Assembly (NCBI GenBank): GCA_937920105.1 | Contig: CALETH010000131.1 | Span: forward strand, 6,400-70,399 | Direction of reading: 5' to 3' | Length of the DNA: 64,000 nt | Source: an uncultured Bacteroidota bacterium | GTDB lineage: Bacteria; Bacteroidota; Ignavibacteria; UBA10030; UBA8401 | Shown here: one piece after another, positions 18,850 to 35,954 of the stretch | Layout: each line of letters begins with the position of its first letter | Numbering within the stretch: position 1 is the first letter of the stretch | Program-made: the position numbers and the translations under genes | The notes under the pieces: generated by a model | The model's input: the letters and a program-made list of their open reading frames with translations, nothing else | Database searches by the model: none | What the model was told of the DNA's origin: nothing

Positions 18850-18873
18850 ATTCATAAACCCTGCCATAGTTAG

Positions 18874-18905: not shown

Positions 18906-18916
18906 AATAAAAAATC

Positions 18917-19411: not shown

Positions 19412-19442
19412 TTTTTTTTATTGATAATAAAAAGGTATTATT

Positions 19443-19649: not shown

Positions 19650-19879
19650 TGCCCCAAGTGCCACTTCTTCGTCCAAAAGATATTATTAAAGTTTTTGAAA
19701 AACTTGGCTGGGAAGTTGTACGTCAACGAGGAAGTCATATCATTCTTACCAAAGAAGGGAGTATTTCAACATTGTCAGTTCCTAATCATTCTGAAGTTGC
19801 TCGTGGTACATTAAGAGGTCTTATTCAAAAAGCAGGAATAACAATAGAACACTTTATCGAAGTTTTACAAACGTTATGA
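19649..19879 (+). CDS. hicA: HicA-family mRNA interferase toxin
   Basis: 76 aa, ...VRQRGSHIILTKEG... matches the HicA motif; its stop overlaps the nuoC start (ATGA). Confidence 0.75.
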   Translation: MPQVPLLRPKDIIKVFEKLGWEVVRQRGSHIILTKEGSISTLSVPNHSEVARGTLRGLIQKAGITIEHFIEVLQTL

Positions 19880-20352: not shown

Positions 20353-20361
20353 AAATATTTT

Positions 20362-20628
20362 ATGAAATATCTCCTATGGTTTTTTGTCGCTATTAATGCA
20401 GCAATCGGAATTAAATACCTTTTGAGTTCTTTTGGTGTATTCAAAATGCGATATTATCCATTTATTACAGAATTTATTTTTGCTGTTGTACTGCTTGGTA
20501 CGGCTGCGGTGGCATTATATATTTATCATTATAAAGAAATCATGTGGTTATCATTTCTTATTGTTTGTTCACCACTTATGCTTTTGTGTATAGTAGTATT
20601 TTTTTCAATGGTAACAGGTAAATATTAA
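20362..20628 (+). CDS. Small hypothetical membrane protein (3 TM)
   Basis: 88 aa hydrophobic ORF wedged between nuoC and nuoD. Confidence 0.45.
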   Translation: MKYLLWFFVAINAAIGIKYLLSSFGVFKMRYYPFITEFIFAVVLLGTAAVALYIYHYKEIMWLSFLIVCSPLMLLCIVVFFSMVTGKY

Positions 20629-20674
20629 CTTATAAACTATATTTTTATCAACTAATTATACAGGGAGTTATAAT

Positions 20675-21196
20675 ATGAAAAGCATGTTCTTCGTCATCGC
20701 AATTATTTTTTTCACACTTCCAATCTATGCACAAGTACAAGTAGAGGAAGGTCAGGAAGATGAATGCTATCAAGAAATTATTCAAGATATGAACAAAGAA
20801 ATAGCAGAAGCACCAACGAACGCAGAGTTGTATATCACACGTGGCAATGCGAAATATTATTTAGATGATTTTCGTGGAGCAATGTCTGACTACAAACAAG
20901 CATTAGAAAATAATGAAAGTTCTGCAGAAGCATATTGCCGGCTTGGAATGGTGAAGTTGCAATTTCTCAATCAATTTGAAGAATCGCTTGCAGATTTTGA
21001 AAAATCCATTGAGTTAAATGAAAAATATGCTCTTGCGTATTATGGTAGAGGTTTAGCAAAAATTGCCAAACAAGAAGATGATAAAGAAGGCGGTTGTGCA
21101 GATTTAAGCAAAGCCGGAGAATTAGGAGAAATCAAAGCATATCAAGCATTAAAAAATTTGTGTAAAAGTTCTAAAGATGTAGCAAAAGAAGAATAA
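20675..21196 (+). CDS. Secreted TPR-repeat protein
   Basis: Signal peptide MKSMFFVIAIIFFTLPIYAQ, then TPR-like helical repeats. Confidence 0.6.
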   Translation: MKSMFFVIAIIFFTLPIYAQVQVEEGQEDECYQEIIQDMNKEIAEAPTNAELYITRGNAKYYLDDFRGAMSDYKQALENNESSAEAYCRLGMVKLQFLNQFEESLADFEKSIELNEKYALAYYGRGLAKIAKQEDDKEGGCADLSKAGELGEIKAYQALKNLCKSSKDVAKEE

Positions 21197-21211
21197 ATTT
21201 TACATATCTGC

Positions 21212-22366
21212 ATGTCTAAAGGAGCGCATCTACATAACATTGCAACAAAAAATCTTCGTACCGAGGAAATGGTTCTCAATATGGGACCGCAACATCCATC
21301 AACGCATGGGGTGCTGCGGCTTGAACTTCTTGTTGATGGAGAAATTGTTGTTGATGTCATTCCCCACATAGGTTACCTTCATCGCTGTTTTGAAAAACAC
21401 GCCGAACAAATGCTCAACTATCAACAAATCATTCCGTATGTTGATAGGATGGATTATGTTGCTTCCATGACGAATGAGTTTGCATTTGTTACCGCCGCAG
21501 AAAAACTTTTCAATATTCAAGTTCCCGAACGAGTAGAATACATTCGCGTAATTATGGCGGAGTTGCAACGCATCGCCAGTCATCTTATTGCTGTTGGAAC
21601 CTACGGAATTGATATTGGAGCGTTCACACCATTTTTATATTGTTTCCGTGACCGCGAAAAAATTTTAGATTTATTTGAGATGACCTCCGGTGCACGGCTT
21701 CTTTACAATTATATGTGCATTGGCGGATTGTATCATGATTTGCCAAATGGATTTATTGAAAAAGCAAAAGAATTTTGTCAATACTTTAGAAAACAATTAA
21801 AAGATTTTAATGATTTATTGACATACAATGAAATTTTTATAAACCGAACAGCAAATGTGGGAATCCTTCCTGTAGATGTTGGTATTAATTATGCATGCAG
21901 TGGTCCAATGTTGCGGGGTTCCGGTGTAGATTGGGATTTGCGCCGTGATGACCCATATTCAATTTATCATAAATTGGAATGGGAAGTTTGTGTTGCAAAA
22001 GGGGAAGTGGGAAAGATTGGTGATTGTTGGAATAGACATTTTGTGCGTGTGCGAGAAATGGAGCAAAGCATTCTTATAATAGAGCAAGCGTTGGCACAAC
22101 TTCCGGAAGGAGATGTGAAATCCGCAATTCCTAAAAGAATACGACCGTTGCCTGCAGAAATTTACGTACGCACAGAAGCACCACGTGGAGAATTGGGATT
22201 TTATATTGTGAGTGATAATTCTACATCACCGTACCGTGTGAAAGCACGTTCATCTGCATTTGTGAACTTGAGTGTGATTGCAGAAATTGCTCGTGGTGCA
22301 ATGCTTGCCGATATGGTTGCCATTATCGGAAGTATTGATATTGTGTTGGGTGAAGTGGATAGATGA
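21212..22366 (+). CDS. nuoD: NADH-quinone oxidoreductase subunit D
   Basis: 384 aa, 49 kDa subunit ([16 protein letters not shown]). Confidence 0.96.
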
Positions 22367-22439
22367 TGTTTAATGGAAAGTTGCAAATGAGGAATTGATA
22401 ATATAAAAAATAATATACTTTTAAATAAGTGAGGTATTT

Positions 22440-22691
22440 ATGATAACAGCAAAAGAAGCCACACAAGCAGCAATAAAATATTTCCAAGAAGTTTTTAATG
22501 GCCGTTATGATAATTTAGCAGTAGAAGAAATCGAATTATCTTCTGATGAAAAATTTTGGTCTATTACACTTGGTTATAATATGATGTCAACAATGACAAT
22601 GCTTGTACCTACATCGCAACGAACATATAAAGAATTTAAAGTTTCTGCTGAAAGTGGTAAAGTTACTGCGATGAAAATCCATAATGTTTAA
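22440..22691 (+). CDS. Small hypothetical protein, possibly PepSY-like
   Basis: 83 aa; weak resemblance to the PepSY fold pattern (LAVEEIEL...FKVSAESGKVTAMKI). Confidence 0.35.
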   Translation: MITAKEATQAAIKYFQEVFNGRYDNLAVEEIELSSDEKFWSITLGYNMMSTMTMLVPTSQRTYKEFKVSAESGKVTAMKIHNV

Positions 22692-22696
22692 TATAT

Positions 22697-23207
22697 ATGG
22701 CGGATTATTATATTGAATTGTTAAAAAAATATTATTCTAAAGGTATACTTATAGATACAAATTTACTTTTGATATTTATTATTGGAATGTGTGATAAAAA
22801 TTATATCGCAACATTTAAGCGAACAAAGACATTTTCGTCTGAAGATTATGATATTCTTTTTCATATACTTCAACCATTTTGTAAAATCATAACAACACCA
22901 AATATTCTTACAGAAGTTAGTAATCATCTCGGATTTTTAGAGGAGTCTTTGAAACAGAAAGTTTTGAAAACTTATTTCTAATAATATTAATTCTTATTTT
23001 GCGGAAAGTTATCATAAAAGCAATTTTCTTTCTTCAAAAGATTTTTTTCATAAATTTGGACTTACGGATTCCAGCATTATTGAAGAAGCAAAAAATAAGT
23101 ATTTAGTTCTTACGGAAGATTTAAAATTAACCAATTATCTCCAATACCAAAAAATAGATGTCATGAATTTTCATCATTTGCAAACAATAAATTGGTATTC
23201 AACATAA
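22697..23207 (+). pseudogene. PIN-domain (VapC-like) nuclease gene disrupted by a +1 frameshift near 22968-22981
   Basis: Track ORF 22697..22981 encodes the PIN N-terminal motif (GILIDTNLLL). The C-terminal half (…FAESYHKSNFLSSKDFFHKFGLTDSSIIEEAKNKYLVLTEDLKLTNY…, stop about 23207) continues in a different frame with no start codon. Confidence 0.65.
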
Positions 23208-23242
23208 TATAAACCCATTTCACTCACTTAAATTTATCTATT

Positions 23243-24373
23243 ATGGAAAACTCATACACAGAAACAACATCAAAATCTTGGGGAAATAGAATAATGGAAT
23301 CTCTCAAAGGGATTCTTTTCGGACTTCTTCTTGTTGCACTTGCATTTATCGTTTTATGGTGGAACGAAGGACGTGCCGTAAAAACTGCAAAAAGTTTAGA
23401 AGAAGGTGCATCCAGCGTTGTAACAATTTCTTCATCTGCTGTTGCAAAAGAAAACGAGCAAAAACTTGTTCATCTTACCGGAATGGCAACAACAAATGAA
23501 ATATTAATTGATGCAGATTTTAAAATTTCTCTTCCTGCAATTAAACTTAGAAGAATTGTGGAAATGTATCAATGGAAAGAAGAAAAATCTGAAAAGAAAG
23601 AAAAGAAAATGGGCGGCTCGGAAGAAACGGTAACAACGTATTCTTATAAAAAAGTGTGGGATGATAATATTATTTCTTCTGAAAATTTTAAACAAAAAGA
23701 AGGACATACTAATCCAACAACATTTCAATATTCTTCATCTGAAAAAATTGCACAAAATGTTCAAGTTGGTGGCTTTACACTTTCACCATCACTCATTCAA
23801 AAAATAAATAAATACGAAAAACTCAATCCGCAAACATTTGATTCTACACAAAAATCTTCGCAAGAAATTTATATTGGAAGAGGAAATATTAATTCACCGG
23901 AAATTGGAGATGTAAAAATCTCTTTTGAAGCAGTAAAGCCAATCGAAGTAAGCATTGTTGCAAAACAAGTAGGAAATTCTTTTGAACCATATAAAGCAGA
24001 AGCCGGCGGTGAAGTAGAATTACTGGAGTATGGAAATGTTCCTGCCGCAAAAATGTTTTCTGAAGCACAATCCACCAATACAACAATGACATGGATTTTC
24101 CGCATTGCTGGAATTGCAATGATGTTTTTTGGAATTATGACAATTTTTAAACCACTCGTTACCGTTGCTGATGTGTTACCATTTCTCGGAAGTATATTAA
24201 ATATGGGACTCGGAATTTTTTCTGCTGTAATTTCATTTTCATTAAGTTTTATTACCATTGCCCTTGCGTGGTTATTTTACCGTCCTGTGTTGGGAATTAT
24301 TTTATTAGTTATTGGTATTGGAATTTTTGTGGGAATAAAATTTATTTCACCGAAAAAGAAAACAGCGAAATAA
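23243..24373 (+). CDS. TMEM43-like (DUF1625-type) membrane protein
   Basis: 376 aa, N-terminal TM (LFGLLLVALAFIVLWWNEGR), large soluble domain, C-terminal cluster of TM helices; architecture resembles bacterial TMEM43 homologues. Confidence 0.5.
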   Translation: MENSYTETTSKSWGNRIMESLKGILFGLLLVALAFIVLWWNEGRAVKTAKSLEEGASSVVTISSSAVAKENEQKLVHLTGMATTNEILIDADFKISLPAIKLRRIVEMYQWKEEKSEKKEKKMGGSEETVTTYSYKKVWDDNIISSENFKQKEGHTNPTTFQYSSSEKIAQNVQVGGFTLSPSLIQKINKYEKLNPQTFDSTQKSSQEIYIGRGNINSPEIGDVKISFEAVKPIEVSIVAKQVGNSFEPYKAEAGGEVELLEYGNVPAAKMFSEAQSTNTTMTWIFRIAGIAMMFFGIMTIFKPLVTVADVLPFLGSILNMGLGIFSAVISFSLSFITIALAWLFYRPVLGIILLVIGIGIFVGIKFISPKKKTAK

Positions 24374-24380
24374 GATTTGT

Positions 24381-24405
24381 AGGGACGGTTGCAAAACCGT
24401 CCTTG
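24381..24405. repeat. Hairpin with GGTTGCAAAACC core
   Basis: agggacggttgcaaaaccgtccttg; sister copy agaatggttgcaaaaccattcca at 2664-2686. Both lie just 3' of plus-strand stop codons. Confidence 0.6.
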
Positions 24406-24416
24406 GAAATTTTTAG

Positions 24417-24523
24417 AGAAACGTTCCCTCTATTTTGAAAAAAATCCAAAAGATGGAAAATTGTGGAAGAAAATAAAAGACGAATTTCTTAAAGCAAAAA
24501 ACTATAAGAGAATAGAAAAATAG
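24417..24523 (+). other. Degenerate duplicate of the 3' end of the antitoxin gene 24614..24841
   Basis: gaaacgttccctctattttgaaaaaaatccaaaagatggaaaattgtggaagaaaataaaagacgaatttcttaaagcaaaaaactataag aligns at about 85% with 24751-24841 (…RSLYFEKNPEGGKLWEEIKDEFLKGKKL). Confidence 0.75.
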
Positions 24524-24534
24524 AAACTGAAATA

Positions 24535-24567
24535 AGATTTGTCTAGTTTCAAAAACTTGACAAATCT
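24535..24567. repeat. Palindromic repeat AGAT-stem-TTTAAAA-stem-ATCT (variant A)
   Basis: agatttgtctagtttcaaaaacttgacaaatct. Confidence 0.8.
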
Positions 24568-24613
24568 AATCATAGTAATCCTATAAATTAAGGTCAAATC
24601 AAGAGGCAAATGT

Positions 24614-24841
24614 ATGCAAACACATCTTCGTAATAAAATAAATAAATTGAGCGTTTCTGAAAAAATTTTACTCGTTGAAGAACTTTGGGATGATATTGCT
24701 CGTAAGAATGAAACTTTTGAATTATCACAAAGTCAAAAAAGTGAATTAGAGAAACGCTCACTCTATTTTGAAAAAAATCCAGAAGGTGGAAAATTGTGGG
24801 AAGAAATAAAAGACGAATTTCTTAAAGGCAAAAAATTATAA
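24614..24841 (+). CDS. Putative addiction-module antitoxin (TIGR02574-like) paired with ParE-type toxin
   Basis: 75 aa, LSVSEKILLVEELWDDI...SQSQKSELEKR...NPEGGKLWEEIKDEF matches the 'putative addiction module component' family pattern. Confidence 0.7.
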   Translation: MQTHLRNKINKLSVSEKILLVEELWDDIARKNETFELSQSQKSELEKRSLYFEKNPEGGKLWEEIKDEFLKGKKL

Positions 24842-25134
24842 TGTCTATTCGTTTTCATCCTGAATCTGAAAAAGAATTAAAAGAGTCCGTTTATTGGTAT
24901 GAATATCAACGTAAAGGTCTTGGATTTGAATTTCTTTTTTGTGTTGATGAAGCCATAGAACAAATAAAAAATCGTCCTCAAATGTATCCACTCGTTACAG
25001 AAAAAACTCGTCGTATAGTTGTTAAAAGATTTCCCTTTGCTATTTTTTACGAAACAAATAAATCCAGTATTTATATTTTGGCTATTTTTCATTTACGACG
25101 CAATCCAAAAGAATGGAAAAATAGAAAATCATAG
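24841..25134 (+). CDS. ParE/RelE-family toxin (plasmid stabilisation system protein)
   Basis: 97 aa, IRFHPESEKELKESVYWYE...FPFAIFYE...IYILAIFHLRRNPKEW; TAATG overlap with the antitoxin gene. Confidence 0.75.
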   Translation: MSIRFHPESEKELKESVYWYEYQRKGLGFEFLFCVDEAIEQIKNRPQMYPLVTEKTRRIVVKRFPFAIFYETNKSSIYILAIFHLRRNPKEWKNRKS

Positions 25135-25171
25135 TCATATCATTACAATCCTATAAATCATAGTTTAAGCC

Positions 25172-26218
25172 ATGCCCGAGTTTCTTACCAATATTTTTGG
25201 AAAAACAATAATTGTTCACATTATCATGGGAGCAGTACCGTTATTATTTATACTTCCGTACGCTCTTGTAGTTATTTATGTGGAAATGAAACTTTCTTCC
25301 CACATGCAAAACCGTGTGGGATATATGAGAACCGGTTGGCATGGAACACTGCAACCTTTTGCAGATATTTTCAAACTCTTACAAAAAGAAAATATTGTTC
25401 CAGCAGAAGCAGATAAAATTTTATTTTCATTAGCACCATTTATAGTTTTTATCGGAATGTATGCTGCGTACGCAGTGCTGCCTTTTGGAAGCGGATATGT
25501 TGGCAGCGAAATGGAAATCGGAATTTTTTATCTACTCGCAGTTTCTTCATTAGTGGTTGTAGGAATTTTGATGGCTGGCTGGTCATCCAATAATAAATGG
25601 TCATTATTAGGAGCAATGCGTTCTGTTGCACAAATTGTAAGTTACGAAATTCCGGCAGCATTAGCATTGCTTGGAGTGGTGATGCTTGCCGGAACAATGA
25701 ATACCGAAATGTTAAGTGCAATGCAATCCGGTGGAATGCACGAATGGTTTATTTTTGGCGGAACATTACCATTGTGGAAAAAATTTACAATCATTCCCTT
25801 TATGTTTATAATTTTTTTGGTGTATCTCGTTTCATCAATGGCAGAGGTAAATCGGACACCATTTGATTTGCCCGAAGCAGAATCTGAATTAGTGCAGGGT
25901 TACAATACAGAATACAGCGGAATGAAATTTGCTATTTTTTATTTAGCAGAATATGGAAATTTATTTTTAATTTCTGCTATTGCAGTAATTGTATTTTTTG
26001 GCGGATATACAAGTCCGTTTGGAAAATTTCTTTCCGGAGGTGTGTGGGATGTTTTTTGGTTTATCACCAAAGGAATGTTGTTAGTACTTATTAATATTTG
26101 GATTCGTTGGACTCTTCCTCGTTTGCGAGTTGACCAACTCATGTACGTTTCATGGAAAGTCCTTACACCATTTGCTTTGGTTGGAATTATTGTTATCGGA
26201 TTTATTTTGGTTGTGTAA
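25172..26218 (+). CDS. nuoH: NADH-quinone oxidoreductase subunit H
   Basis: 348 aa polytopic membrane protein with ND1/NuoH signature (SEMEIGIFYLLAVSSL, RTPFDLPEAESELVQGYNTEYSG). Confidence 0.96.
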   Translation: MPEFLTNIFGKTIIVHIIMGAVPLLFILPYALVVIYVEMKLSSHMQNRVGYMRTGWHGTLQPFADIFKLLQKENIVPAEADKILFSLAPFIVFIGMYAAYAVLPFGSGYVGSEMEIGIFYLLAVSSLVVVGILMAGWSSNNKWSLLGAMRSVAQIVSYEIPAALALLGVVMLAGTMNTEMLSAMQSGGMHEWFIFGGTLPLWKKFTIIPFMFIIFLVYLVSSMAEVNRTPFDLPEAESELVQGYNTEYSGMKFAIFYLAEYGNLFLISAIAVIVFFGGYTSPFGKFLSGGVWDVFWFITKGMLLVLINIWIRWTLPRLRVDQLMYVSWKVLTPFALVGIIVIGFILVV

Positions 26219-26223
26219 GTTTT

Positions 26224-26256
26224 ATATTTGTCAAGTTTTTAAAACTTGACAAATCT
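26224..26256. repeat. Palindromic repeat stem-TTTTTAAAA-stem (variant A)
   Basis: atatttgtcaagtttttaaaacttgacaaatctgtat. Confidence 0.8.
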
Positions 26257-26277
26257 GTATGATATAACTTTATAAGT

Positions 26278-26814
26278 ATGCAATACTTTATCAACATATA
26301 TAAATCACTCCGTTCAGTTATTGTTGGGTTGAAAATTACTGCGAAAAATCTTTTTAAGCCAACAGTAACGATTCAATATCCGGATGTGAAAAAAGCAATG
26401 CCGGAGCGGACAAGAAATCGTTTGTATGTCAATATGGATGATTGTATTGGCTGCGACCAATGTGCAATTGCATGTCCGGTAAACTGCATTACCATAGAAA
26501 CAATCAAATCAACACCCGAAGATAATCTTGGTGTAACATCAACAGGACACAAAAAGAAACTTCATGTTCCCGTGTTTGATATTGATATTGCGAAATGTTG
26601 TTATTGTGGATTGTGCGTTCCACCATGTCCCACAGATTGTATTGTGATGACACCGGTGTACGAATTTTCTGAATTTGATAGACAAAATTTAATTTATAAT
26701 TTCAGCACGATGACCCCTTCTGAAATTGAAACAGCAAAACTCAAAGCAAAGAAAATGGAAGAAGAAATTGCTGCGAAAAAATCAGCACAAAATTCTACAA
26801 CTGGTTCTGTATAA
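26278..26814 (+). CDS. nuoI: NADH-quinone oxidoreductase subunit I (2x[4Fe-4S] ferredoxin)
   Basis: CIGCDQCAIACP and CCYCGLCVPPCP motifs. Confidence 0.95.
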   Translation: MQYFINIYKSLRSVIVGLKITAKNLFKPTVTIQYPDVKKAMPERTRNRLYVNMDDCIGCDQCAIACPVNCITIETIKSTPEDNLGVTSTGHKKKLHVPVFDIDIAKCCYCGLCVPPCPTDCIVMTPVYEFSEFDRQNLIYNFSTMTPSEIETAKLKAKKMEEEIAAKKSAQNSTTGSV

Positions 26815-26816
26815 AC

Positions 26817-26862
26817 TCCCCTCTGTGTATTGGCAAGAGCAATGGAGAGAGGGGTGTGTCCA
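26817..26862. repeat. Repeat family P hairpin
   Basis: cccctctgtgtattggcaagagcaatggagagaggggtgtgtcc, compare 10741-10795. Translation of this element produces the spurious N-terminal extension of the nuoJ ORF in the track. Confidence 0.75.
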
Positions 26863-26907
26863 AAAAATAAGAAGAAAAAATTAAGAATTAAGAAAGATAC
26901 TATTACA

Positions 26908-27420
26908 ATGTTCCTCCAACTTTTCGACATCATCTTTTATTTTTTTGCAACAGTAACACTCATTTCTGCAGGGATTGTTGTATTCTCAAAAAATATAGTA
27001 CGCTCAGCATTCTCATTAGTCTTTACATTTTTTGGAATTGCCGGATTGTATGTATTATTGAATGCAGATTTTGTTGCTGTAGCACAACTCTTTGTGTACG
27101 TTGGCGGAATTTTAGTATTACTATTATTTGCAGTTATGTTAACACAAAAAATTTCTAATCTACAAATGAAAATAACAACACTTCATCCAATAATTGCAAT
27201 AATTCTTGTTGCATCACTTATTGGTGTATTGTGCGGAATTGTGCGGATGAATGACTGGCGAATTATTACAATTTCTGAAATACCACAATCCACAGCACAA
27301 TCAATTGGAAAGGCATTGATAACAACACATATTCTTCCATTTGAAATTATTTCCGTTATTTTACTCGTTGCAATTATCGGAGCAGCAATGCTCGCAAGAA
27401 AGAGCGAAAAAAAATCATGA
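26908..27420 (+). CDS. nuoJ: NADH-quinone oxidoreductase subunit J
   Basis: Start chosen at MFLQLFDIIFYFF (ATG 26908) because the track's first 26 codons lie inside a repeat element; 5 TM ND6/NuoJ-like. Confidence 0.85.
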   Translation: MFLQLFDIIFYFFATVTLISAGIVVFSKNIVRSAFSLVFTFFGIAGLYVLLNADFVAVAQLFVYVGGILVLLLFAVMLTQKISNLQMKITTLHPIIAIILVASLIGVLCGIVRMNDWRIITISEIPQSTAQSIGKALITTHILPFEIISVILLVAIIGAAMLARKSEKKS

Positions 27421-27722
27421 TAACACTTCATCATTTTTTATTTGTTAGTATTATTCTTTTTGGATTAGGTGTGTATGCAGTTTTAACACGTCGCAATGCA
27501 GTGATGGTATTGATGGGAATAGAACTTATTCTCAATGCAGCCAATCTCAATTTTGTTGCTTTTTCTCGTTATGGTGGATTGAAATTAGATGGACAAATGT
27601 TTGCGTTGTTTGTGATTATTCTTGCAGCAGCAGAAGCCGCTGTTGCATTAGCTATCATTCTCAATATTTATCAACGCTTCAATACTATTAATGTGGATGA
27701 TGTTGATACGTTGAAAGAGTGA
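27417..27722 (+). CDS. nuoK: NADH-quinone oxidoreductase subunit K
   Basis: 101 aa, 3 TM, ND4L/NuoK (GIELILNAANLNFVAFS). Confidence 0.95.
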   Translation: MITLHHFLFVSIILFGLGVYAVLTRRNAVMVLMGIELILNAANLNFVAFSRYGGLKLDGQMFALFVIILAAAEAAVALAIILNIYQRFNTINVDDVDTLKE

Positions 27723-27865
27723 CCCTGATTTTCAAGATTACAAGATTACGATGATGTAATTAACAAAATTTTTACTTTGCATCTTAGCGACTTTGCGAGA
27801 CAAAACAAATCCGCGAAAATCATAAAAATCTTAACAATCAGTGCTTTATCAAATAATATAATTTA

Positions 27866-29896
27866 ATGCAAAAAACACTTTTACAATTATCTTTTATTGT
27901 TTTTATTCTTCCTCTGTGCAGTTTTCTTTTTCTTATTTTTTTCGGAAAAAAACTGCGAGCGGAAATATTCGCAACTTCTGTTATTGCAGTAACATTTCTT
28001 TTAAGCATATTTATTGCAACTATAAAATTTTTATCTTTTCCTCAAGAAACATTTCATTATTCTTTTTCTTGGATAAATTTTCCCATCAAGATAGAAACCG
28101 GAATTTTACTCGATAATCCCGCAGCAATAATGCTTGTTATCGTAACATTCATCAGTTTTCTTGTACATCTTTTTTCTATAGAATATATGAAAGGAGATGT
28201 ACGTTACTCACGATATTTTTCTTATCTTGGATTTTTTACCACATCAATGCTCGGAATAATTCTCACCGATAATCTTTTTACGATGTACATGTTTTGGGAA
28301 TTGGTTGGTATTAGTTCCTATCTTCTCATCGGACATTGGTACGAAAAAACTTCTGCTGCCAACGCATCAAAAAAAGCATTTATCGTCAATCGCATTGGTG
28401 ATGTAGGAATGTTCATTGGAATTATGTTGTTGTGGAATAATTTTCACACACTCACATTTGAAGGAATTTTTTCTTCACTCAATACTATAGAAAACACATC
28501 ACTACTAACTGTTGCTGGACTTTTACTTTTTTGCGGAGCAATTGGAAAATCTGCACAATTTCCATTACAAGTGTGGTTGCCGGATGCTATGGAAGGACCA
28601 ACTCCCGTGAGTGCATTAATTCATGCAGCAACAATGGTGGCTGCAGGTGTGTATCTGGTGCTTCGCATTTTTCCGTTACTTACCATCGAAGCGTTAACCG
28701 TGATTGCGTACATCGGAGCAGTTACAGCATTTATTGCAGCAACAATTGCAGTTGTTCAAACAGACATCAAAAAAATATTGGCGTACTCTACAATAAGTCA
28801 GTTGGGATATATGATGCTTGGTTTGGGTTCACTTGGATATACAGCGGGATTTTTTCATTTAGTTACACATGCAATTTTTAAGGCGGGACTTTTTCTCGGA
28901 GCCGGTTCGGTAATTTATGCAATGCACAATTCAATACAGGCATTACATCACACAAAAAATCATGATGTTGATGCACAAAATATTTTTTTTATGGGTGGAT
29001 TGAAAAAGAAAATGCCAATTACATTTTGGACTTTTCTTATGTGCACTTTTGCACTCACGGGAATTCCATTGACTTCCGGATTTTTAAGTAAAGATGAAAT
29101 TCTTACATCAGCACTTGTCTTTGGAAACCACACCAATAATTTTCTTCTTCCGTTGTTGGCTTTCAGTACGGTGATGTTAACATCATTTTATATGTTTCGT
29201 CTTATCATTGTTGCATTTTTAGGAAATCATATTGATGAAAAAAGAATAGAACACATTCACGAATCTCCCAAAGTGATGCTCGTACCATTGATTGTATTGG
29301 CAGTGTTATCATTTTTTGTTTTCTATTCGTTCAATCCATTTTCTGTATCAAACAGTTGGTTTACAAAAATTATTACTTTACCACGTTCACTTATTTCAAC
29401 CTATCTTCCTGAACACAGAAAATTTGCAGTAACACCACATCAACAAATACACACTCTTGCAATGGTTGTTTCGTTTGGGGCAACATTATTAGGAATATTA
29501 TTTGCATTTCTTTTGTATTATTGGAAAAAGATTTCTCCACAAAAGATTGCACAAAAATCTCGTTTATTATATTCATTTTTTTCTCAACAATGGTACTTTG
29601 ATAGATTCTATAATATATTTGTGGTGAAAGGAACACTTGCATTTTCTAAAATTTTTTCTTGGTTTGATGTAAAAGTTATTGATGGATGTGTGAATGGAAC
29701 AGCAGTACTATTTCAAAAAATTTCTTTTGTGAGTGGAAAATTTGATTCCATTATTGTTGATGGAATCGTTAATTTTATTGCGTATTTTTCCGGCATGTTG
29801 GGATTAGGGTTACGAAAAATCCAAACAGGAAAAGTGCAAACTTACATTGCATTAGTAATCGTTGGAATTTTAATTTTATTTTTTGTGTATAAATGA
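27866..29896 (+). CDS. nuoL: NADH-quinone oxidoreductase subunit L
   Basis: 676 aa antiporter-like subunit (WLPDAMEGPTPVSALIHAATMV). Confidence 0.96.
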   Translation: MQKTLLQLSFIVFILPLCSFLFLIFFGKKLRAEIFATSVIAVTFLLSIFIATIKFLSFPQETFHYSFSWINFPIKIETGILLDNPAAIMLVIVTFISFLVHLFSIEYMKGDVRYSRYFSYLGFFTTSMLGIILTDNLFTMYMFWELVGISSYLLIGHWYEKTSAANASKKAFIVNRIGDVGMFIGIMLLWNNFHTLTFEGIFSSLNTIENTSLLTVAGLLLFCGAIGKSAQFPLQVWLPDAMEGPTPVSALIHAATMVAAGVYLVLRIFPLLTIEALTVIAYIGAVTAFIAATIAVVQTDIKKILAYSTISQLGYMMLGLGSLGYTAGFFHLVTHAIFKAGLFLGAGSVIYAMHNSIQALHHTKNHDVDAQNIFFMGGLKKKMPITFWTFLMCTFALTGIPLTSGFLSKDEILTSALVFGNHTNNFLLPLLAFSTVMLTSFYMFRLIIVAFLGNHIDEKRIEHIHESPKVMLVPLIVLAVLSFFVFYSFNPFSVSNSWFTKIITLPRSLISTYLPEHRKFAVTPHQQIHTLAMVVSFGATLLGILFAFLLYYWKKISPQKIAQKSRLLYSFFSQQWYFDRFYNIFVVKGTLAFSKIFSWFDVKVIDGCVNGTAVLFQKISFVSGKFDSIIVDGIVNFIAYFSGMLGLGLRKIQTGKVQTYIALVIVGILILFFVYK

Positions 29897-29952
29897 ATAT
29901 AATTTTAAAAAAATACAATTTTATATTTATAAACTATAATAAGGAATAAATT

Positions 29953-30627
29953 ATGCCATGGATGGAATTCATTAGAGAAGATTCTTACGTAAGTAAGGAT
30001 AGCCCAAATATAGCAATAACCAGCGACCGCAAATTCATGTTTAATTCTCAGTTTGTCAGATTAGCTGGCTTGAATATCAAACAACGGGTGGTAGTTCATA
30101 TTCATCCAGAGACGTATAGAATTGGATTTGAATTTGTTACAGATGATAATCAAAATTCTTTCCAATTAGGTTATCAATCTCGTGGTAGTAAATCAGGAGG
30201 ACTTAATTGTACAGCTGGAGCAGTAATTAATAGATTTGCTTGGATAAAGGCAATTTCAGAATTAAAATCTCCCCAAGCAAAACGTTTTTCTCCAAAACAA
30301 GATAGAGAAATGGGGAAATTGGTATGGGCAATACAACTTTGTCCGGCTTTTGAAATTAGCGAGTCTAGAGAAGCAAATAATATTCCAAGTGGAGCAAAAG
30401 GAATATATCGGTATAAACGTCATAGTGGAGAAATAGTTTATATAGGTAAAGGAGATATAAAGAGTAGATTAAATGAACCTCAAAGACGAGAATGGAAGTT
30501 TGATACAATTGAGTATTCAATTGTAGAAGATGTAGATGCAAGAACAAAATGGGAAGAATTTTGGATTGTTCGTTTTCAAGAAGAAAATAAACAACAACTT
30601 CCAATGTATAATAAAATTTCTGCTTAA
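29953..30627 (+). CDS. Swapped-hairpin (AbrB/MazE-like) N-terminal domain fused to a GIY-YIG nuclease domain
   Basis: 224 aa; the N-terminal IAITSDRKFMFNSQFVRLAGLNIKQRVVVHIHPETYRIGFEFV resembles AbrB/SpoVT-type DNA-binding barrels; the C-terminal GIYRYKRHSGEIVYIGKG...R...E is a GIY-YIG core. RBS aaggaa. Confidence 0.6.
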   Translation: MPWMEFIREDSYVSKDSPNIAITSDRKFMFNSQFVRLAGLNIKQRVVVHIHPETYRIGFEFVTDDNQNSFQLGYQSRGSKSGGLNCTAGAVINRFAWIKAISELKSPQAKRFSPKQDREMGKLVWAIQLCPAFEISESREANNIPSGAKGIYRYKRHSGEIVYIGKGDIKSRLNEPQRREWKFDTIEYSIVEDVDARTKWEEFWIVRFQEENKQQLPMYNKISA

Positions 30628-30663
30628 AATTATAGAATATATTTTTACATATTTGATACAATT

Positions 30664-32244
30664 ATGCAATTCACATTTCTCAATATAGGAATACTCACAT
30701 GGCTAACATTCTTACCATTGGTAGGAATGCTGTGTATCTTTTTTCTTCCACAAAAAAAATCACAACTAGCAAAATGGATAACATTAGGTTGCACAACAAT
30801 CCAATTGTTATTAGCAACAATCATTTATATAAAATTTGATAGAACATTAGCAGGAGTAAATTCTATCGAAGGAATGCAATTCAAAGAAATTTTTCCATGG
30901 ATTTCTATTAACAGTACAGAATGGTTCGGGAAAATTTCCATTCAATATTTTTTAGGAATTGATGGACTCAGTGTTCCGATGATTTTATTAACAGCAATTA
31001 TTTCTTTCATTGCCGTTCTTGCATCATGGAAAATAGAAAAATCCGTGAAAGGATATTTTTCATTATTTCTTTTATTAAACACCGGAATGTTTGGCGTTTT
31101 TGTTGCGTTAGATTTTTTCTTGTTCTTTATTTTTTGGGAATTAATGTTGTTACCAATGTATTTTCTTATTGGAGTGTGGGGTGGAGAGCGAAGAGAATAT
31201 GCAGCAGTAAAATTTTTCCTCTACACATTATTTGGTTCAGTGCTGATTTTATTAGTGATGTTGGCATTATACTTTAGTGTTACTGTTACTGATGCAATAA
31301 CTGGAGAAAAAATGCACACCTTCAATATGCTCGCAATGATGAATCCACAAAATTTTGAAAACAATTCACTCTTATTCGGACTTCACACTTATTGGAGATA
31401 CATTGCATTTATTGCACTCTTTATTGGATTTGCAATTAAATTACCGTTGTTTCCATTTCACACATGGCTGCCTGATGCACACGTGGAAGCACCAACAGCA
31501 ATCAGCGTTATTCTTGCCGGCATACTTTTAAAAATGGGTGGATATGGTTTAGTGAGAATTGCATTACCAATTTTTCCGGATGCAGCAATACACTATGTAT
31601 ATCCTATTGCCTTTTTGGGATTTATTAATATTGTGTATGGTGCATTGTGTGCAATGGCACAAAAAGATTTTAAAAAACTCATTGCCTATTCATCCGTCAG
31701 CCACATGGGAATTGTAGTGTTGGGAATTGCAGCGTTAAATACGCAAGGAATGGTTGGAGCAATGTTGCAAATGTTCAATCACGGAACAATTACCGCAATG
31801 CTCTTTGTTATTGTCGGCGTATTGTATGATAGAACACACACACGTCAGATAAGTGAGTTTGGCGGGTTGATGAATAAAATGCCAAAATATTCTGCATTAG
31901 TAGTCATTGCATTTTTTGCATCACTTGGTTTGCCGGGATTAAGCGGATTTATTTCTGAGGCCTTTTCATTTCTCGGTGCATTTCAAACTCATCAATGGTT
32001 AACTATTGCTTCCACATCTGGAATAGTATTAACCGCCGCTTATATGTTGTGGACTTTTCAACGTGTGTATTTAGGAACACTTCCGGAAAAATGGAATTCA
32101 CTACAAGATATTTCCAAACGAGAGTTATTGATGTTAGTTCCGCTAGCAATCATTATAATATTTTTAGGAATTTATCCAACACCAATGTTAGAATTAATGA
32201 ATACTTCTGTGAACGCTCTTGTTGAAATGGTAAAAGTGAAATAA
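30664..32244 (+). CDS. nuoM: NADH-quinone oxidoreductase subunit M
   Basis: 526 aa antiporter-like subunit (FPFHTWLPDAHVEAPTAISVILAGILLKMGGYG). Confidence 0.96.
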   Translation: MQFTFLNIGILTWLTFLPLVGMLCIFFLPQKKSQLAKWITLGCTTIQLLLATIIYIKFDRTLAGVNSIEGMQFKEIFPWISINSTEWFGKISIQYFLGIDGLSVPMILLTAIISFIAVLASWKIEKSVKGYFSLFLLLNTGMFGVFVALDFFLFFIFWELMLLPMYFLIGVWGGERREYAAVKFFLYTLFGSVLILLVMLALYFSVTVTDAITGEKMHTFNMLAMMNPQNFENNSLLFGLHTYWRYIAFIALFIGFAIKLPLFPFHTWLPDAHVEAPTAISVILAGILLKMGGYGLVRIALPIFPDAAIHYVYPIAFLGFINIVYGALCAMAQKDFKKLIAYSSVSHMGIVVLGIAALNTQGMVGAMLQMFNHGTITAMLFVIVGVLYDRTHTRQISEFGGLMNKMPKYSALVVIAFFASLGLPGLSGFISEAFSFLGAFQTHQWLTIASTSGIVLTAAYMLWTFQRVYLGTLPEKWNSLQDISKRELLMLVPLAIIIIFLGIYPTPMLELMNTSVNALVEMVKVK

Positions 32245-32684
32245 TGAAGATATCAGAAAACATCATCCCACTGTCCTTAGAAGAAGTAATAATTTTACAA
32301 AAAAAACGGACGAAAATTATTATTGCTTTATCTAAAATAGAAATTTTTTCTTTGGGAGTATTATTTTTCTTTTTTCGAAATAATCTTAATGAAATAGTAT
32401 TTTTTGTCCTTTTAGGTTGTGTTACAGTTTTGTTGATAGTGATTAGTTTTATAGCAGTAAAACAAATAAATAAAGATTTATATAAAGATATAAAAAAAAT
32501 AATTATAGGTACTATTGATAATAAACTTATTGAGTTTTATAAATCTCCATCGTATTACCTTTTTATCGGTAACGAAAAAATTTTTGTTGATAAAAAAACA
32601 TATCAACAATATGAAATTGGTGCTAAGATAGAGATTCATATCACTTTTTACAGTCAACACGTATTTATTATTAAGTATCTTTAA
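32244..32684 (+). CDS. Small 2-TM membrane protein, paralogue 1 (possibly bPH_2/DUF304-like)
   Basis: Starts MKISENIIPLSLEE; two TM helices then about a 75-aa soluble domain ending KIEIHITFYSQHVFIIKYL; TAATG-coupled to nuoM. Confidence 0.5.
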   Translation: MKISENIIPLSLEEVIILQKKRTKIIIALSKIEIFSLGVLFFFFRNNLNEIVFFVLLGCVTVLLIVISFIAVKQINKDLYKDIKKIIIGTIDNKLIEFYKSPSYYLFIGNEKIFVDKKTYQQYEIGAKIEIHITFYSQHVFIIKYL

Positions 32685-33139
32685 TGAAAATCTCAGAAAA
32701 TATCGTTCCACTTTCTCCGGAAGAAATTGAAACTTTACAAAAAGACAAAAGAAATACTCTTATAGCAGTTCCAATAGTAGGAATAGTTTTTGTAATAGTT
32801 TTATATTTCATTTTTGATGAAAACATTTTGTGGTTTTATACAGTGAGTGGGAGTATCCTTTTATTATTTTCTTTTTTCATGTGGAAAACAACTCAAAAAA
32901 TTCGTAAAGATATTCAAGAAGGAATGAAAAGGGTAATTGTTGGTACGATTGATAATAAATCTGCTCAAAAATCAGCAACCACTAATAATAAATCCAGCAC
33001 CAATACTAATTACTATTTGTGGCTCGGTGAAGAAAAATTTTCCATCAATTCAGATACTTATTATAAATGTGAAAAAGAACAAAAAGTAGAAATTCATATA
33101 ACACCACACTCTCAACATATATATAAAATTATTGTATGA
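32684..33139 (+). CDS. Small 2-TM membrane protein, paralogue 2
   Basis: Starts MKISENIVPLSPEE; same architecture as the upstream gene with a low-complexity insertion (KSATTNNKSSTNTNYY); ends KVEIHITPHSQHIYKIIV. Confidence 0.5.
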   Translation: MKISENIVPLSPEEIETLQKDKRNTLIAVPIVGIVFVIVLYFIFDENILWFYTVSGSILLLFSFFMWKTTQKIRKDIQEGMKRVIVGTIDNKSAQKSATTNNKSSTNTNYYLWLGEEKFSINSDTYYKCEKEQKVEIHITPHSQHIYKIIV

Positions 33140-34242
33140 ATATTGTAATGCTATTGTTTTGTATTATCGCTGGATTTTTTATTTTTTTTGGATGTTCTAA
33201 AGCCATGAAAAAATCTTCATCATTTCCTTCTATAGAACAAGAAACATTAGAAGAACGAGAAAAGGGCTTTCAACAATATCCCAACGCATTATATCCAATA
33301 GAAAAAAATGGAAAATGGGGATATATGAATCGTGCAACAAAAATTATTATTCAACCACAATATGAAAACGTGGAAGATTTTTTTGAAGGAAGAGCAAAAA
33401 TCCAAAAAAATGGAAAGTATGGGTATATTGATAGTACTGGAAAAGAAATTATTTTAGCACAATTTGAAAAGGCAGAAAATTTTTTTGAAGGATTTGCAAA
33501 AATAAAAAAAAATGAGAAATACGGCTTTATTGATAAAACAGGAAAAGAAATTATCTCACCACAATTTGAAGATGCGGGAAATTTTTCTGAGGGCTTTGCT
33601 GCTGTAAAAATAAATGGTAAAACCGGATTTATAAATAGAGAAGGAAAAATAATTATCCAACCGCAATTTTTACGTGCAGTGTATGTTTCGCAATTTTCTG
33701 AAGGACTTGCTTCAGTCTATACCTCGGAAGAAGAAGGTGGTGGATATATTGATAAAAAAGGTGAGTGGATTATTCAACCAAATTTTATTGAAGTTGGTCC
33801 TTTTCGTAATGGACTTGCCAGAGTTGCTGTTCAAGAAGATAAAATACTGACTGGCTTTCTTGATAAAGGTGGTCTATTTGTTATCGCACCATCATTTACT
33901 TTTGCATGGGATTTTTCTGAAAATTTTGTAACGGGTTGGACATTAAGCGAAGACCGAACGAAAAAAATCTGGAAATGTATGGATACACAAGGCAATATTG
34001 TTCTTGATAATTTACCATATCGAACAGTTGGTGCATGTGTGGGAGGATTTATTCCTATACAAAATTCTGAAATGAAGTGGGGATTTATGGATATCACTGG
34101 AAAAGAAATTATTCCACCGCAATTTTCAGGAATAAATCATTTTAAAAATGGACTTGCGAGAATGGAAATAGGAGATTTCTCTCGTGGACATACGTCTATT
34201 GTTTATATTAATCCAACAGGCAAAATAGTTTGGCAACCGTAA
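33136..34242 (+). CDS. WG-repeat (KWG-like) lipoprotein
   Basis: Lipoprotein signal ...FFGCSK; at least 7 repeats of G[KY][WY]G[FY]I[DN]xTGKEIIxPQFExxxxFxEGxA. Confidence 0.7.
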   Translation: MNIVMLLFCIIAGFFIFFGCSKAMKKSSSFPSIEQETLEEREKGFQQYPNALYPIEKNGKWGYMNRATKIIIQPQYENVEDFFEGRAKIQKNGKYGYIDSTGKEIILAQFEKAENFFEGFAKIKKNEKYGFIDKTGKEIISPQFEDAGNFSEGFAAVKINGKTGFINREGKIIIQPQFLRAVYVSQFSEGLASVYTSEEEGGGYIDKKGEWIIQPNFIEVGPFRNGLARVAVQEDKILTGFLDKGGLFVIAPSFTFAWDFSENFVTGWTLSEDRTKKIWKCMDTQGNIVLDNLPYRTVGACVGGFIPIQNSEMKWGFMDITGKEIIPPQFSGINHFKNGLARMEIGDFSRGHTSIVYINPTGKIVWQP

Positions 34243-34269
34243 TATGATTAAGTTATTCAAAAAAACAAT

Positions 34270-34350
34270 GTCATTCCCACATGTTTTTAGTGGGAATCCA
34301 TTTTTTAAATTTTCGTAAAAATATGGATTCCCGCTTTCGCGGGAATGACC
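34270..34350. repeat. Two REP-like palindromes (gtcattcccac-N-gtgggaatcc; ggattcccgctttcgcgggaatgacc)
   Basis: The first is near-identical to 13016-13044; the second is the GAAA-loop type also seen at 50529. Their translation gives the spurious MFLVGIHFLNFRKNMDSRFRGNDLKKF extension of the nuoN ORF in the track. Confidence 0.75.
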
Positions 34351-34373
34351 TTAAAAAATTTTGTATTCGCTTT

Positions 34374-35822
34374 ATGATTGAACACATCCTTTCTTCGCTA
34401 CACTATATTTATCCAGAGATTACACTTCTTGGGACAATTCTTACTATTATAATAGCAGATGTTTTTTTATCATCACATAAAAAAATATCTTTTGTTATAA
34501 TTGCTTTTATTGGAATTTTTCTTCTAGCAACATTTCTTATTCAACAACAATTTTCTCTTAATGCAATTTTTGATGGAATGCTTACAATAGATTCCTTTGC
34601 ACGATTTTTTAAACTTTTAATTATTGCTGCTGGTGCATTCACAATTCTTTTCTCACTCAATTCATCAGAGCTTACTACAATCCATCAACGCCTCGGTGAA
34701 TATTATGCAATTCTTTTCACCGCAATGCTGGGAATGTTTTTAATGGTCAGTGCAACACATCTGCTCACATTATATTTAGCAATAGAACTTACCAGTATTA
34801 GTTTCTACATTTTGGTTGGCATTATAAAAGAAAGACAATCTTCATCCGAAGCATCGCTGAAATATATTTTATATGGAGCATTTTCTTCCGGAGTAATGTT
34901 GTACGGACTTTCACTTTTTTATGGAATGTTTGGTTCGTTAGAATTTAGTGCTATACAAATTGCTCTTATAGAAGGAAGCACAAATCCATTATTACTATTG
35001 TTTGCAACATTGTGTTTGCTTGTCGGACTTGGATATAAAATTTCCATTGTTCCGTTTCATTTTTGGACTCCTGATGTGTACGAAGGTGCACCAATTACTA
35101 TTACAGCATTTCTTTCCGTTGCATCAAAAATTTCCGGATTTGCTTTGCTGATGCGAATAGTAATGATGTTTTCCGAAGTGAAAGAAATTCCTCTACAACA
35201 AATTCTCATTATCATTTCTATTCTAACAATGACGATTGGAAACCTTGTGGCCTTATGGCAAAATAATATTAAAAGATTTCTTGCATACTCTAGTATTGCC
35301 CACGCCGGATATTTATTATTAGGGTGTGTAACGATGGGAAAAGAAGGATTGATGGCAATGATGTTGTACAGCGGAATATATCTTTTTATGAACCTTGGAA
35401 CATTTTATGTTGCAATGTTTGTTGCTGATATAAAACAAAGTGAACATCTTGATGCTTACAAAGGATTAGGAAAATCATTTCCATTTCTTTCTATTGCAAT
35501 GGTAATATTTTTAATTTCGCTAACGGGGTTGCCGCCTACTGCAGGATTTATAGGTAAACTGTATTTATTTTCTTCTTTAATGAATGCAAAACTTGTATGG
35601 TTAGCATTGATAGCAGTTATTAATAGTATTATATCATTATACTATTATATAAGAATTATCCGGAACATGTTTTTGCGTGATGAGGAATTACCAATCATAA
35701 CACATAATATTTTTTTATTTCCTCAAAAAATTCTTCTTTTACTTTTACTTCTTCCCACAATTATTTTTGGAATGTATTTTTCTCCATTGATGGAATTGGT
35801 GCGAAGTTCCATACTGAAATAG
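34374..35822 (+). CDS. nuoN: NADH-quinone oxidoreductase subunit N
   Basis: Start chosen at MIEHILSSLHYIYPE (ATG 34374), downstream of the repeat; ND2/NuoN antiporter-like subunit. Confidence 0.9.
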   Translation: MIEHILSSLHYIYPEITLLGTILTIIIADVFLSSHKKISFVIIAFIGIFLLATFLIQQQFSLNAIFDGMLTIDSFARFFKLLIIAAGAFTILFSLNSSELTTIHQRLGEYYAILFTAMLGMFLMVSATHLLTLYLAIELTSISFYILVGIIKERQSSSEASLKYILYGAFSSGVMLYGLSLFYGMFGSLEFSAIQIALIEGSTNPLLLLFATLCLLVGLGYKISIVPFHFWTPDVYEGAPITITAFLSVASKISGFALLMRIVMMFSEVKEIPLQQILIIISILTMTIGNLVALWQNNIKRFLAYSSIAHAGYLLLGCVTMGKEGLMAMMLYSGIYLFMNLGTFYVAMFVADIKQSEHLDAYKGLGKSFPFLSIAMVIFLISLTGLPPTAGFIGKLYLFSSLMNAKLVWLALIAVINSIISLYYYIRIIRNMFLRDEELPIITHNIFLFPQKILLLLLLLPTIIFGMYFSPLMELVRSSILK

Positions 35823-35880
35823 TGTTCTTGCCAATACATCTTTTTTTTTGTACATTATTAAACTTTTCTCAATTCTTAAG

Positions 35881-35954
35881 GCGGGGTAGCTCAGCTGGTT
35901 AGAGCGTCGGAATCATAATCCGTAGGTCGGGGGTTCAAGTCCCTCCCCCGCTAC
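35881..35954 (+). tRNA. tRNA with CAT anticodon (Met, or more likely Ile2/lysidine given the tilS neighbour)
   Basis: ggcggggtagctcagctggttagagcgtcggaatcataatccgtaggtcgggggttcaagtccctcccccgcta folds as a cloverleaf (7-bp acceptor with G1-U72, D-arm GCTC/GAGC, anticodon loop aTCATAa, T-arm GGGGG/CCCTC, TTCAAGT loop); no encoded CCA. Confidence 0.85.

Follow-up and report, generated by a model that had tools for sequence, protein, structure and literature searches.

A predicted two-domain GIY-YIG nuclease of an undescribed family, encoded between nuoL and nuoM in an uncultured Bacteroidota bacterium

In an uncultured Bacteroidota bacterium of the Ignavibacteria (GenBank assembly GCA_937920105.1), a stretch of 64,000 nucleotides (nt) of contig CALETH010000131.1 (positions 6,400 to 70,399, forward strand; hereafter the window) carries an open reading frame (ORF) of 224 amino acids (aa) between the complex I genes nuoL and nuoM. 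The C-terminal half of its product is a GIY-YIG nuclease domain, as supported by the conservation of the motif and catalytic residues, by the Foldseek match and by weak profile matches. The N-terminal half is a basic, beta-rich module with a putative role in nucleic-acid recognition. Although enzymes of this class are known, we found no description of the family, of its N-terminal module or of its architecture in the libraries and the literature that we searched. We tentatively read the ORF as a solitary, horizontally mobile, restriction-like DNA endonuclease, either type IV-like or directed at a rare site, whose two-domain branch of the GIY-YIG superfamily is undescribed; the probability of this reading is, in our estimate, about 0.42.

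The gene occupies 29953..30627 of the + strand, with an ATG start and 224 codons before the stop. It follows nuoL (27866..29896, +; Pfam Proton_antipo_N/M, E 2.5e-82) after an A+T-rich spacer of 56 nt (29897..29952, +) and is separated by 36 nt (30628..30663, +) from nuoM (30664..32244, +; Pfam Oxidored_q5_N and Proton_antipo_M). These coordinates and the flanks identified by Pfam agree with a first-pass annotation of the window that had been made from the letters alone. The downstream nuoM is apparently intact, with homologues from ~70 loci covering its residues ~10 to ~523 (tblastn). Judged by its homology, the 224-aa ORF is a genuine gene and not a chance ORF, because it has 64 homologues of full length (210–236 aa, best E 1.6e-63) and because 643 of 1.84 billion cluster representatives, searched exhaustively with a profile, match at E<=1e-3 (210 of them at E<=1e-30), almost all with a length of 210–240 aa.

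The nuclease domain spans residues ~131–224 (30343..30624, +). Its core, GIYRYKRHSGEIVYIG, consists of G150-I-Y152, ten residues and Y163-I-G165, with Arg172, Glu187 and Glu201 downstream; the first-pass annotation had recognized this core and a downstream Arg/Glu. The complete series of motifs comprises the junction P131-x-F133-E134, G150-I-Y152-x-Y154, Y163-I-G165, R172, E187, W200-E201 and P217-x-Y-N220. When 204 family members were aligned to the family profile, G165 was kept in all of them, G150 and Y152 in 203 each, Y163 in 202, R172 and N220 in 200 each and E201 in 197; E187 was less conserved (179/204), and Y154, kept in 191, extends the first motif to “GIYxY.” In the GIY-YIG superfamily, “GIY” and “YIG” lie in the N-terminal part of a domain of ~100 aa, with a conserved Arg in its center, a conserved Glu toward its C-terminus and an optional Asn in motif E (PMC1564403). 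The window protein and its family have the motif, the Arg and the Glu. Glu201 would be the catalytic glutamate, judging from its place in the long helix that follows strand three. Asn220 comes 19 residues later, a distance that presumably agrees with the Glu–Asn spacing of I-TevI and UvrC.

The predicted structure points in the same direction. An AlphaFold2 model built from 59 sequences had a mean predicted local distance difference test score (pLDDT) of 92.2 and a predicted template modeling score (pTM) of 0.82; the model and its match to the GIY-YIG domain of UvrC (1yd6) have the fold of the superfamily, a three-stranded sheet flanked by helices. Foldseek gave the latter match a probability of 1.0 and an E of 0.016–0.034, with a target TM score of 0.60–0.66 and a root-mean-square deviation of ~3 Å over ~90 columns; the only other confident match of the model in PDB was one plant GIY-YIG-like domain. 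By sequence the domain lies at the edge of the available models. The window protein had zero matches in Pfam, PHROGs and PADLOC, and NCBIfam returned only matches of E~0.1 to the N-terminus of UvrC. Among 59 relatives, sub-threshold matches to Pfam PF01541 (GIY-YIG) were obtained in 17 (best E 0.0031) and to DUF7508 in 16; when members were scanned singly, both mapped to residues ~142–207, and the top PF01541 score in ten such scans was 14.7 bits vs a cutoff of 22.6. The gathering threshold of PF01541 was reached by neither the window protein nor any of the 59 relatives. Thus, of the two Pfam matches anticipated by the first-pass annotation, the GIY-YIG one emerged only below the threshold and in relatives, and the AbrB one was absent from the 59 members. 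The missed threshold reflects the coverage of the Pfam model and not an absent structural or catalytic feature. The family profile also aligned its motif with that of T4 endonuclease II (HMMER vs PDB, E 0.16), and no paper on DUF7508 was found. From the conservation of its residues and its fold, the 224-aa protein probably cuts DNA.

The N-terminal module covers residues ~1–130 (29953..30342, +). Its predicted secondary structure runs beta-beta-alpha-beta-beta and then beta-beta-alpha-alpha-alpha-beta-beta. A profile of residues 1–138 finds solely proteins of the same architecture, in which the module precedes the GIY-YIG domain, and five longer relatives (P0080, P0083, P0101, P0121, P0168) have two or three tandem copies of it before a single nuclease domain. 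Because of these tandem copies, we regard the module as autonomous. In 97% of the 204 members it is basic (median isoelectric point 9.6, net charge +7), unlike the nuclease domain, whose charge is near neutral; such a charge fits nucleic-acid binding. The layout proposed in the first-pass annotation, a DNA-binding module joined to a nuclease, is supported by this independence, repetition and charge.

The same annotation had assigned the N-terminal half to the AbrB-like swapped-hairpin barrels, citing the peptide IAITSDRKFMFNSQFVRLAGLNIKQRVVVHIHPETYRIGFEFV, which is indeed present as residues 20–62. The support for this fold is weak. The unit at residues ~20–62 has a predicted beta-beta-alpha-beta-beta topology like that of AbrB, MazE and SpoVT (PF04014). 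An hhalign comparison of residues 14–66, with a query built from 204 sequences, against seven N-domains (AbrB/Abh/SpoVT/MazE/PemI/ChpS/VapB) gave a weak match over 34 columns (score 19.1, P 2.4e-4, probability 43%); it covers residues 23–56 in the expected beta2-helix-beta3-beta4 register. None of 200 column shuffles reached this score (mean 7.5, maximum 13.7). The seven sequences had been entered by hand; searched against PDB, they recovered 1z0r, 2fy9, 2ro5, 1ub4 and 3tnd at E 1e-15 to 1e-24. The probability fell to 4% with a smaller alignment and otherwise ranged from 23 to 43%, below any accepted threshold. No member of the 59 matched PF04014 at E<=1, neither the full-length nor the N-domain profile found an AbrB-type chain in PDB with HMMER, and the model of the isolated N-domain (pLDDT 88.8) gave no AbrB-type or other fold match in PDB with Foldseek (best E 0.27, probability <=0.23). 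No likeness to the first half or to AbrB was found by hhalign in the second half of the module. The first half may be a distant AbrB-like unit. No literature linking AbrB-type domains to GIY-YIG nucleases was found. The layout of a putative barrel-type DNA binder and a nuclease recalls EcoRII and BfiI, in which nucleases are fused to related pseudobarrel domains. Two other possibilities were tried and rejected: a B3/EcoRII-like pseudobarrel (hhalign against two B3 domains, entered by hand, P 0.12; no Foldseek match) and an internal duplication of the module, for which the hhalign comparison of the two halves was negative.

The best structural match of the module came from a phage. Against predicted viral structures, Foldseek matched it to Gp105 of Lactococcus phage KSY1 (129 aa; L212 13582–13971; E 6e-6, TM score ~0.6), and ~10 other uncharacterized phage proteins matched at a probability of ~1.0. 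The gp105 gene stands directly after that of RNase HI in the replication module of the phage; its product and the N-terminal module have a weakly common hairpin motif, “IGFEF...DS.Y.L” (hhalign P 0.003). Larger proteins that match the module, of 225–313 aa, occur in Ackermannviridae-type phages (phiEa2809, PhiSH19, Menlow).

Set against every other nuo operon compared, the nuclease gene is an insertion. In ~70 of 80 NuoL loci nuoM is downstream of nuoL; there the two genes form a direct junction, followed in most loci by nuoN, and the gaps between nuoL and nuoM, of tens to a few hundred bases, encode no family member. Thus, the empty junction that the first-pass annotation had suggested looking for is general among the comparators. 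It is also found in the closest relative examined (L179), whose nuoA-B-C-D-H-I-J-K-L-M-N genes fit in a compact 10.7 kb with a gap of 38 bp between nuoL and nuoM. The NuoL of this relative is ~60% identical to that of the window; the best identities found were 46% among species-representative genomes and 60–61% in a set of 5.8 billion proteins. The hits are labeled as uncultured Bacteroidota, a phylum with which a sorting domain for type IX secretion in the window agrees. Because of this distance, the empty junctions in relatives cannot show recent mobility.

The composition of the gene is that of its surroundings. The suggestion of the first-pass annotation that the ORF is richer in GC than its neighbors was not borne out, since its GC content is 0.336, compared with 0.332 for nuoL, 0.346 for nuoM and a window mean of 0.335; GC at third codon positions (GC3) is 0.182, vs 0.24–0.29 in the neighbors, and so is lower, if anything. 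A foreign GC content or codon usage is thus ruled out, as the ORF equals the genome average. Promoter and terminator scans found no promoter-like or terminator-like site in either spacer; the Bacteroidota-type motif TAnnTTTG is absent from the + strand of the 56-nt spacer, and across the window its frequency is at the level of chance. Given that the spacers lack such sites, co-transcription with the nuo operon is the simplest inference, and the ORF is probably expressed by read-through from the nuo promoter. No model of a group I or group II intron or another RNA element matched around the gene, and no intein was present. A second copy of the nuclease gene was found neither in the window nor in the nuo loci. 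An imperfect 11-nt repeat, AATTATGC[C/A]AT, at the start codons of both the ORF and nuoM was considered as a target-site duplication; we did not use it, because by our own rough estimate such a repeat is expected by chance in A+T-rich DNA.

The family comprises ~640 clusters, spread sparsely and patchily across many phyla; besides the window genome, members occur in genomes labeled as Phycisphaerae, Melioribacteraceae and Patescibacteria. Each locus has one copy. All-against-all clustering of the ORFs at 95 loci revealed no conserved partner gene, with no neighbor common to more than five of the loci. The commonest one is a serine recombinase, present at five loci (L008/L009, L128, L130, L153) that count as four independent contexts because L008 and L009 carry the same place. 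No recurrent cluster of methyltransferases was found at the 95 loci; a single class I methyltransferase adjoins the member in L117. The neighborhoods contain housekeeping genes mixed with genes of mobile or defense type, the latter with notable frequency. Integrases, a PLD-SNF2 helicase, a KilA-N gene and an Eco57I-type gene are near the member in L004; L152, which has two upstream ORFs in common with L004, has an integrase upstream, and L012 has an SNF2 helicase. Further neighbors are the toxin–antitoxin pairs TacA/TacT and nucleotidyltransferase/HEPN (L010, L176), an Mrr_cat nuclease (L111), a GmrSD_N-Schlafen protein (L101/L103), an SMC/AAA_21 ATPase (L117), a T5orf172 protein (L158) and staphylococcal-type nucleases (L175, L159). 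The member in L008 is in a prophage-like region, and in genomes of the candidate phyla radiation the homologue stands beside NYN, RuvC and RuvAB (L178) or beside the staphylococcal-type nuclease of L175 and L159. In L002, a gene with the homing-endonuclease-like architecture HNH_3 + AP2 (7409–8287) is 0.5 kb downstream of the family member, and both are situated between glycoside-hydrolase-type genes of a bacterial contig. In mobile-element collections the family was almost missing: tblastn found no match in 50,697 GenBank phage records or in 72,556 PLSDB plasmid records, no PHROG family covers it, and IMG/VR yielded only two loci. PADLOC gave only scattered, marginal matches on the relatives. 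As a separate observation, the copies in 4 of 99 loci (L140, L166, L171, L172) are frameshifted and split over two or three frames, by either decay or sequencing errors.

One of the two IMG/VR loci (L094) is instructive. Here, in a head module of a tailed phage, the homologue is located between the portal gene and a collagen-like gene. In three other loci (L182, L184, L185), with portal genes 85–86% identical to that of L094, the portal gene is followed by an uninterrupted collagen-like gene and there is no homologue; the phage family member thus has the presence/absence polymorphism characteristic of homing endonucleases. Within the region L094 5691–7307, the insert of ~1.08 kb splits the collagen-like gene and carries a short C-terminal “tail” for the upstream piece, which ends in the conserved ...EF..R....AIG..V.IGDS, and a new N-terminal “head” for the downstream piece, which begins with the conserved MDR[AS]EGAL.VAE.AL.EAR. 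Both ends are conserved with L093 (1–1759) and L174 (1–1773), in which the nuclease gene likewise stands between two collagen-like ORFs. This looks like co-conversion, that is, the transfer of flanking coding adaptors together with the nuclease gene. From the presence/absence pattern and the conserved adaptor ends it follows that this family member demonstrably moves as a discrete cassette with its flanking coding adaptors. No intron or intein was found around the L094 homologue.

Taken together, the two-module build, an active site with its residues intact and a distribution that is solitary, patchy and cassette-like suggest an endonuclease that acts on its own and belongs to the mobile gene pool. 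The first-pass annotation had offered a selfish homing-type element or an orphan defense nuclease, and this proved to be the right pair of hypotheses, with a gene that is inserted relative to all compared nuo operons and has no partner. Under the restriction-like reading that we prefer, the basic N-terminal module of ~130 aa would recognize a nucleic-acid target, and the C-terminal domain of ~90 aa would cleave DNA by means of Tyr152/Tyr154, Tyr163, Arg172, Glu201 and Asn220. Since no methyltransferase or immunity gene lies alongside, the host genome would have to be spared through the choice of target, which could be either a modified base, as for type IV enzymes such as CMoRE/PD-T4-3, or a long rare site. 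At the nuoL–nuoM junction the gene would be a co-oriented passenger expressed by operon read-through. A role in defense is supported by the Mrr, GmrSD, ATPase, toxin–antitoxin and integrase genes near family members, by the fact that the family is found mostly in bacterial chromosomes rather than phages and by the precedent of CMoRE.

The latter, whose hallmark is the motif “GIYxY-YIG,” has been proven to act as a type IV enzyme of the GIY-YIG class encoded by one gene (PMC12923530). The family resembles it in being encoded by a single gene without a methyltransferase, in the combination of a GIY-YIG nuclease with a recognition domain that has no known homologues, in the third tyrosine of the motif (here Y154 of G150-I-Y-R-Y154) and in having UvrC as the best structural neighbor of the nuclease domain. 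The arrangement of the window protein, a nuclease with a separate putative sensing domain and no methyltransferase, is that of a single-component type IV enzyme. On the other hand, no CMoRE chain was among the PDB sequence or Foldseek matches listed, and, from the sequence only, the nuclease domain of ~90 aa has no evident acidic autoinhibitory loop insert. Among type II enzymes, Eco29kI and Hpy188I are likewise small, chromosomal GIY-YIG enzymes in which an N-terminal extension aids target recognition (PMC1952068, PMC2630997). In contrast to them, the family has no cognate methyltransferase, either adjoining the gene in the window or conserved at the 95 loci, and the PDB searches gave no sequence match to either enzyme.

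Several observations weigh against a restriction-like role. The window gene is situated in a housekeeping operon and not in a defense island, a position more typical of free-standing homing genes. The domain order is the reverse of that in CMoRE, with the nuclease at the C-terminus, and we saw no homology to the CMoRE sensor domain; no PADLOC-DB model matches the window protein, and the PD-T4-3 model matches none of the 59 members. Genes of mobile or defense type were found within ~3 kb in roughly half of ~28 independent contexts, a proportion assessed by eye, with no background rate for comparison. At position 51 the window protein carries His, whereas 166 of 204 relatives carry Asp. Target recognition by the N-terminal module is putative, and what we propose on binding, cleavage, target and expression is derived from sequence, predicted fold, conservation and genomic distribution.

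The rival that we rank only slightly below it, unlikely as we judge it to be, is that of a free-standing homing endonuclease. Such an enzyme would cut a long site in or near nuoL/nuoM of insertion-free genomes, repair from an insertion-bearing copy would bring its gene into the junction, and the gene would persist between essential genes on their transcript. Membership of the GIY-YIG class agrees with this, as do the junction empty in every comparator, the cassette of L094 with its adaptor ends common to L093 and L174, the patchy distribution across phyla and the HNH_3-AP2 gene adjoining the homologue in L002. The DNA-binding domains of homing enzymes are modular, and the repeatable putative DNA-binding module of the family recalls them. 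The position is also the expected one, intergenic between conserved genes, co-oriented and outside any intron or intein, as in the seg/mob free-standing homing genes of T4, which have no promoter of their own (PMC2988022). Like SegA-G and I-TevI, the family joins a GIY-YIG catalytic domain to a separate, here putative, DNA-binding part (PMC2988022, PMC1564403); with them it also shares the promoter-less, co-oriented cassette between conserved genes and, in the phage homologue, the presence/absence polymorphism. However, in characterized GIY-YIG homing enzymes catalysis resides in the N-terminal domain and binding in C-terminal modules (PMC1564403), the opposite of the order found here, and Pfam detected no NUMOD, zinc-finger or helix-turn-helix module in the window protein or the 59 members. 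In contrast to SegA-G and I-TevI, the family is essentially missing from phage databases and chromosomal in many bacterial phyla. In a chromosomal operon, filled and empty alleles would need to meet frequently in one cell; moreover, many relatives adjoin restriction or defense genes and are not inside conserved operons, no intron or intein accompanies the gene, and with NuoL identities of ~60% there is no close relative to show a recent presence/absence polymorphism. A wider version of this explanation is decidedly improbable in our view: that a new DNA-recognition domain, distantly AbrB-like, repeatable in one to three tandem copies and also found alone as small phage proteins, forms with the GIY-YIG cutter compact endonucleases (~220 aa) of a new class, specific for a site or a modification, of which the window gene would be a chromosomal homing element targeting the complex I operon.

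We consider improbable, and rank below homing, a domesticated cellular nuclease, for instance for repair, recombination or structure-specific cleavage, with a position in the nuo operon that is incidental or serves co-regulation. The superfamily does contain the repair enzymes UvrC and Slx1 (PMC1564403), the best structural match is UvrC, some homologues stand beside NYN, RuvC and RuvAB or a staphylococcal-type nuclease, and the GC and codon composition is fully ameliorated. Nevertheless, a family this sparse and patchy, with ~640 clusters in 1.84 billion representatives, with no conserved genomic context, with frameshifted copies in 4 of 99 loci and with the gene missing from the operons of the closest relatives, hardly fits a housekeeping role. 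Least probable by far is that the nuclease domain is vestigial and the protein acts as an AbrB-type transcription factor or an antitoxin-like regulator; the weak AbrB-like match at residues 23–56 and the ParE toxin–antitoxin module 4.8 kb upstream in the same operon would suit it, but the catalytic residues are all strongly conserved, the ORF has no toxin partner gene, and AbrB membership is unsupported by Pfam and Foldseek.

Our results describe a well-supported, unannotated nuclease family with a new putative recognition domain and an unusual host locus, without overturning current understanding. As no Pfam, NCBIfam, PHROG or PADLOC model covers it, the family is left unannotated in genomes. 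If active, the protein would represent a new GIY-YIG architecture, with a putative recognition module at the N-terminus followed by the nuclease, and a candidate single-gene defense or selfish nuclease. As reagents, small single-chain nucleases whose recognition domains are modular also have practical interest. If the gene were a chromosomal homing element, then homing would, unusually, have reached a core bacterial operon in a setting other than phages, introns and inteins. The locus also indicates that the complex I operon tolerates several co-oriented foreign genes between its subunit genes, which bears on the accretion of passengers in operons.

Indeed, the nuclease gene is not alone: in this lineage several unrelated genes have gathered at the nuo junctions. 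The nuo cluster of the window (16404–35822) contains the same eleven genes as that of L179 (nuoA, B, C, D, H, I, J, K, L, M, N) over 19.4 kb, while nuoE, F and G are not part of it, and unrelated co-oriented genes are found at five or six of its junctions. The GC3 of the inserted genes (0.14–0.24) is below that of most nuo genes (0.20–0.30). Between nuoA and nuoB there is a gene for an SBBP/T9SS-tail protein, a beta-propeller secreted by the type IX secretion system (T9SS) (16825–18849), and between nuoC and nuoD one for a TPR protein (20675–21196). The nuoD/nuoH junction holds a 94-aa ORF, a gene for a TMEM43-like protein (23243–24373) and, directly upstream of nuoH, an Unstab_antitox/ParE pair of 75 and 97 aa (24614–25134). 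Besides the nuoL/nuoM junction with its GIY-YIG nuclease, the nuoM/nuoN junction (32244–34242) is occupied by a tandem pair of paralogues, predicted membrane proteins with lengths of 146 and 151 aa, which are 37% identical and both start with MKISENI.PLS, and then by a WG-repeat protein of 368 aa (WG_beta_rep, E 1e-71) before nuoN.

Over positions 24619–31481 of the window, the identity to L001, an independent ENA contig, is 99.97%. To the left of 24619, which is the left edge of the toxin–antitoxin module, the two are wholly divergent; this may represent a strain-level rearrangement or an assembly break. Two long non-coding gaps with no ORF of >=90 aa follow nuoB (19412–19875, 464 nt) and nuoC (20353–20674, 322 nt). 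A tRNA-Met (CAT) gene is located at 35880–35954, 58 nt past the nuoN stop.

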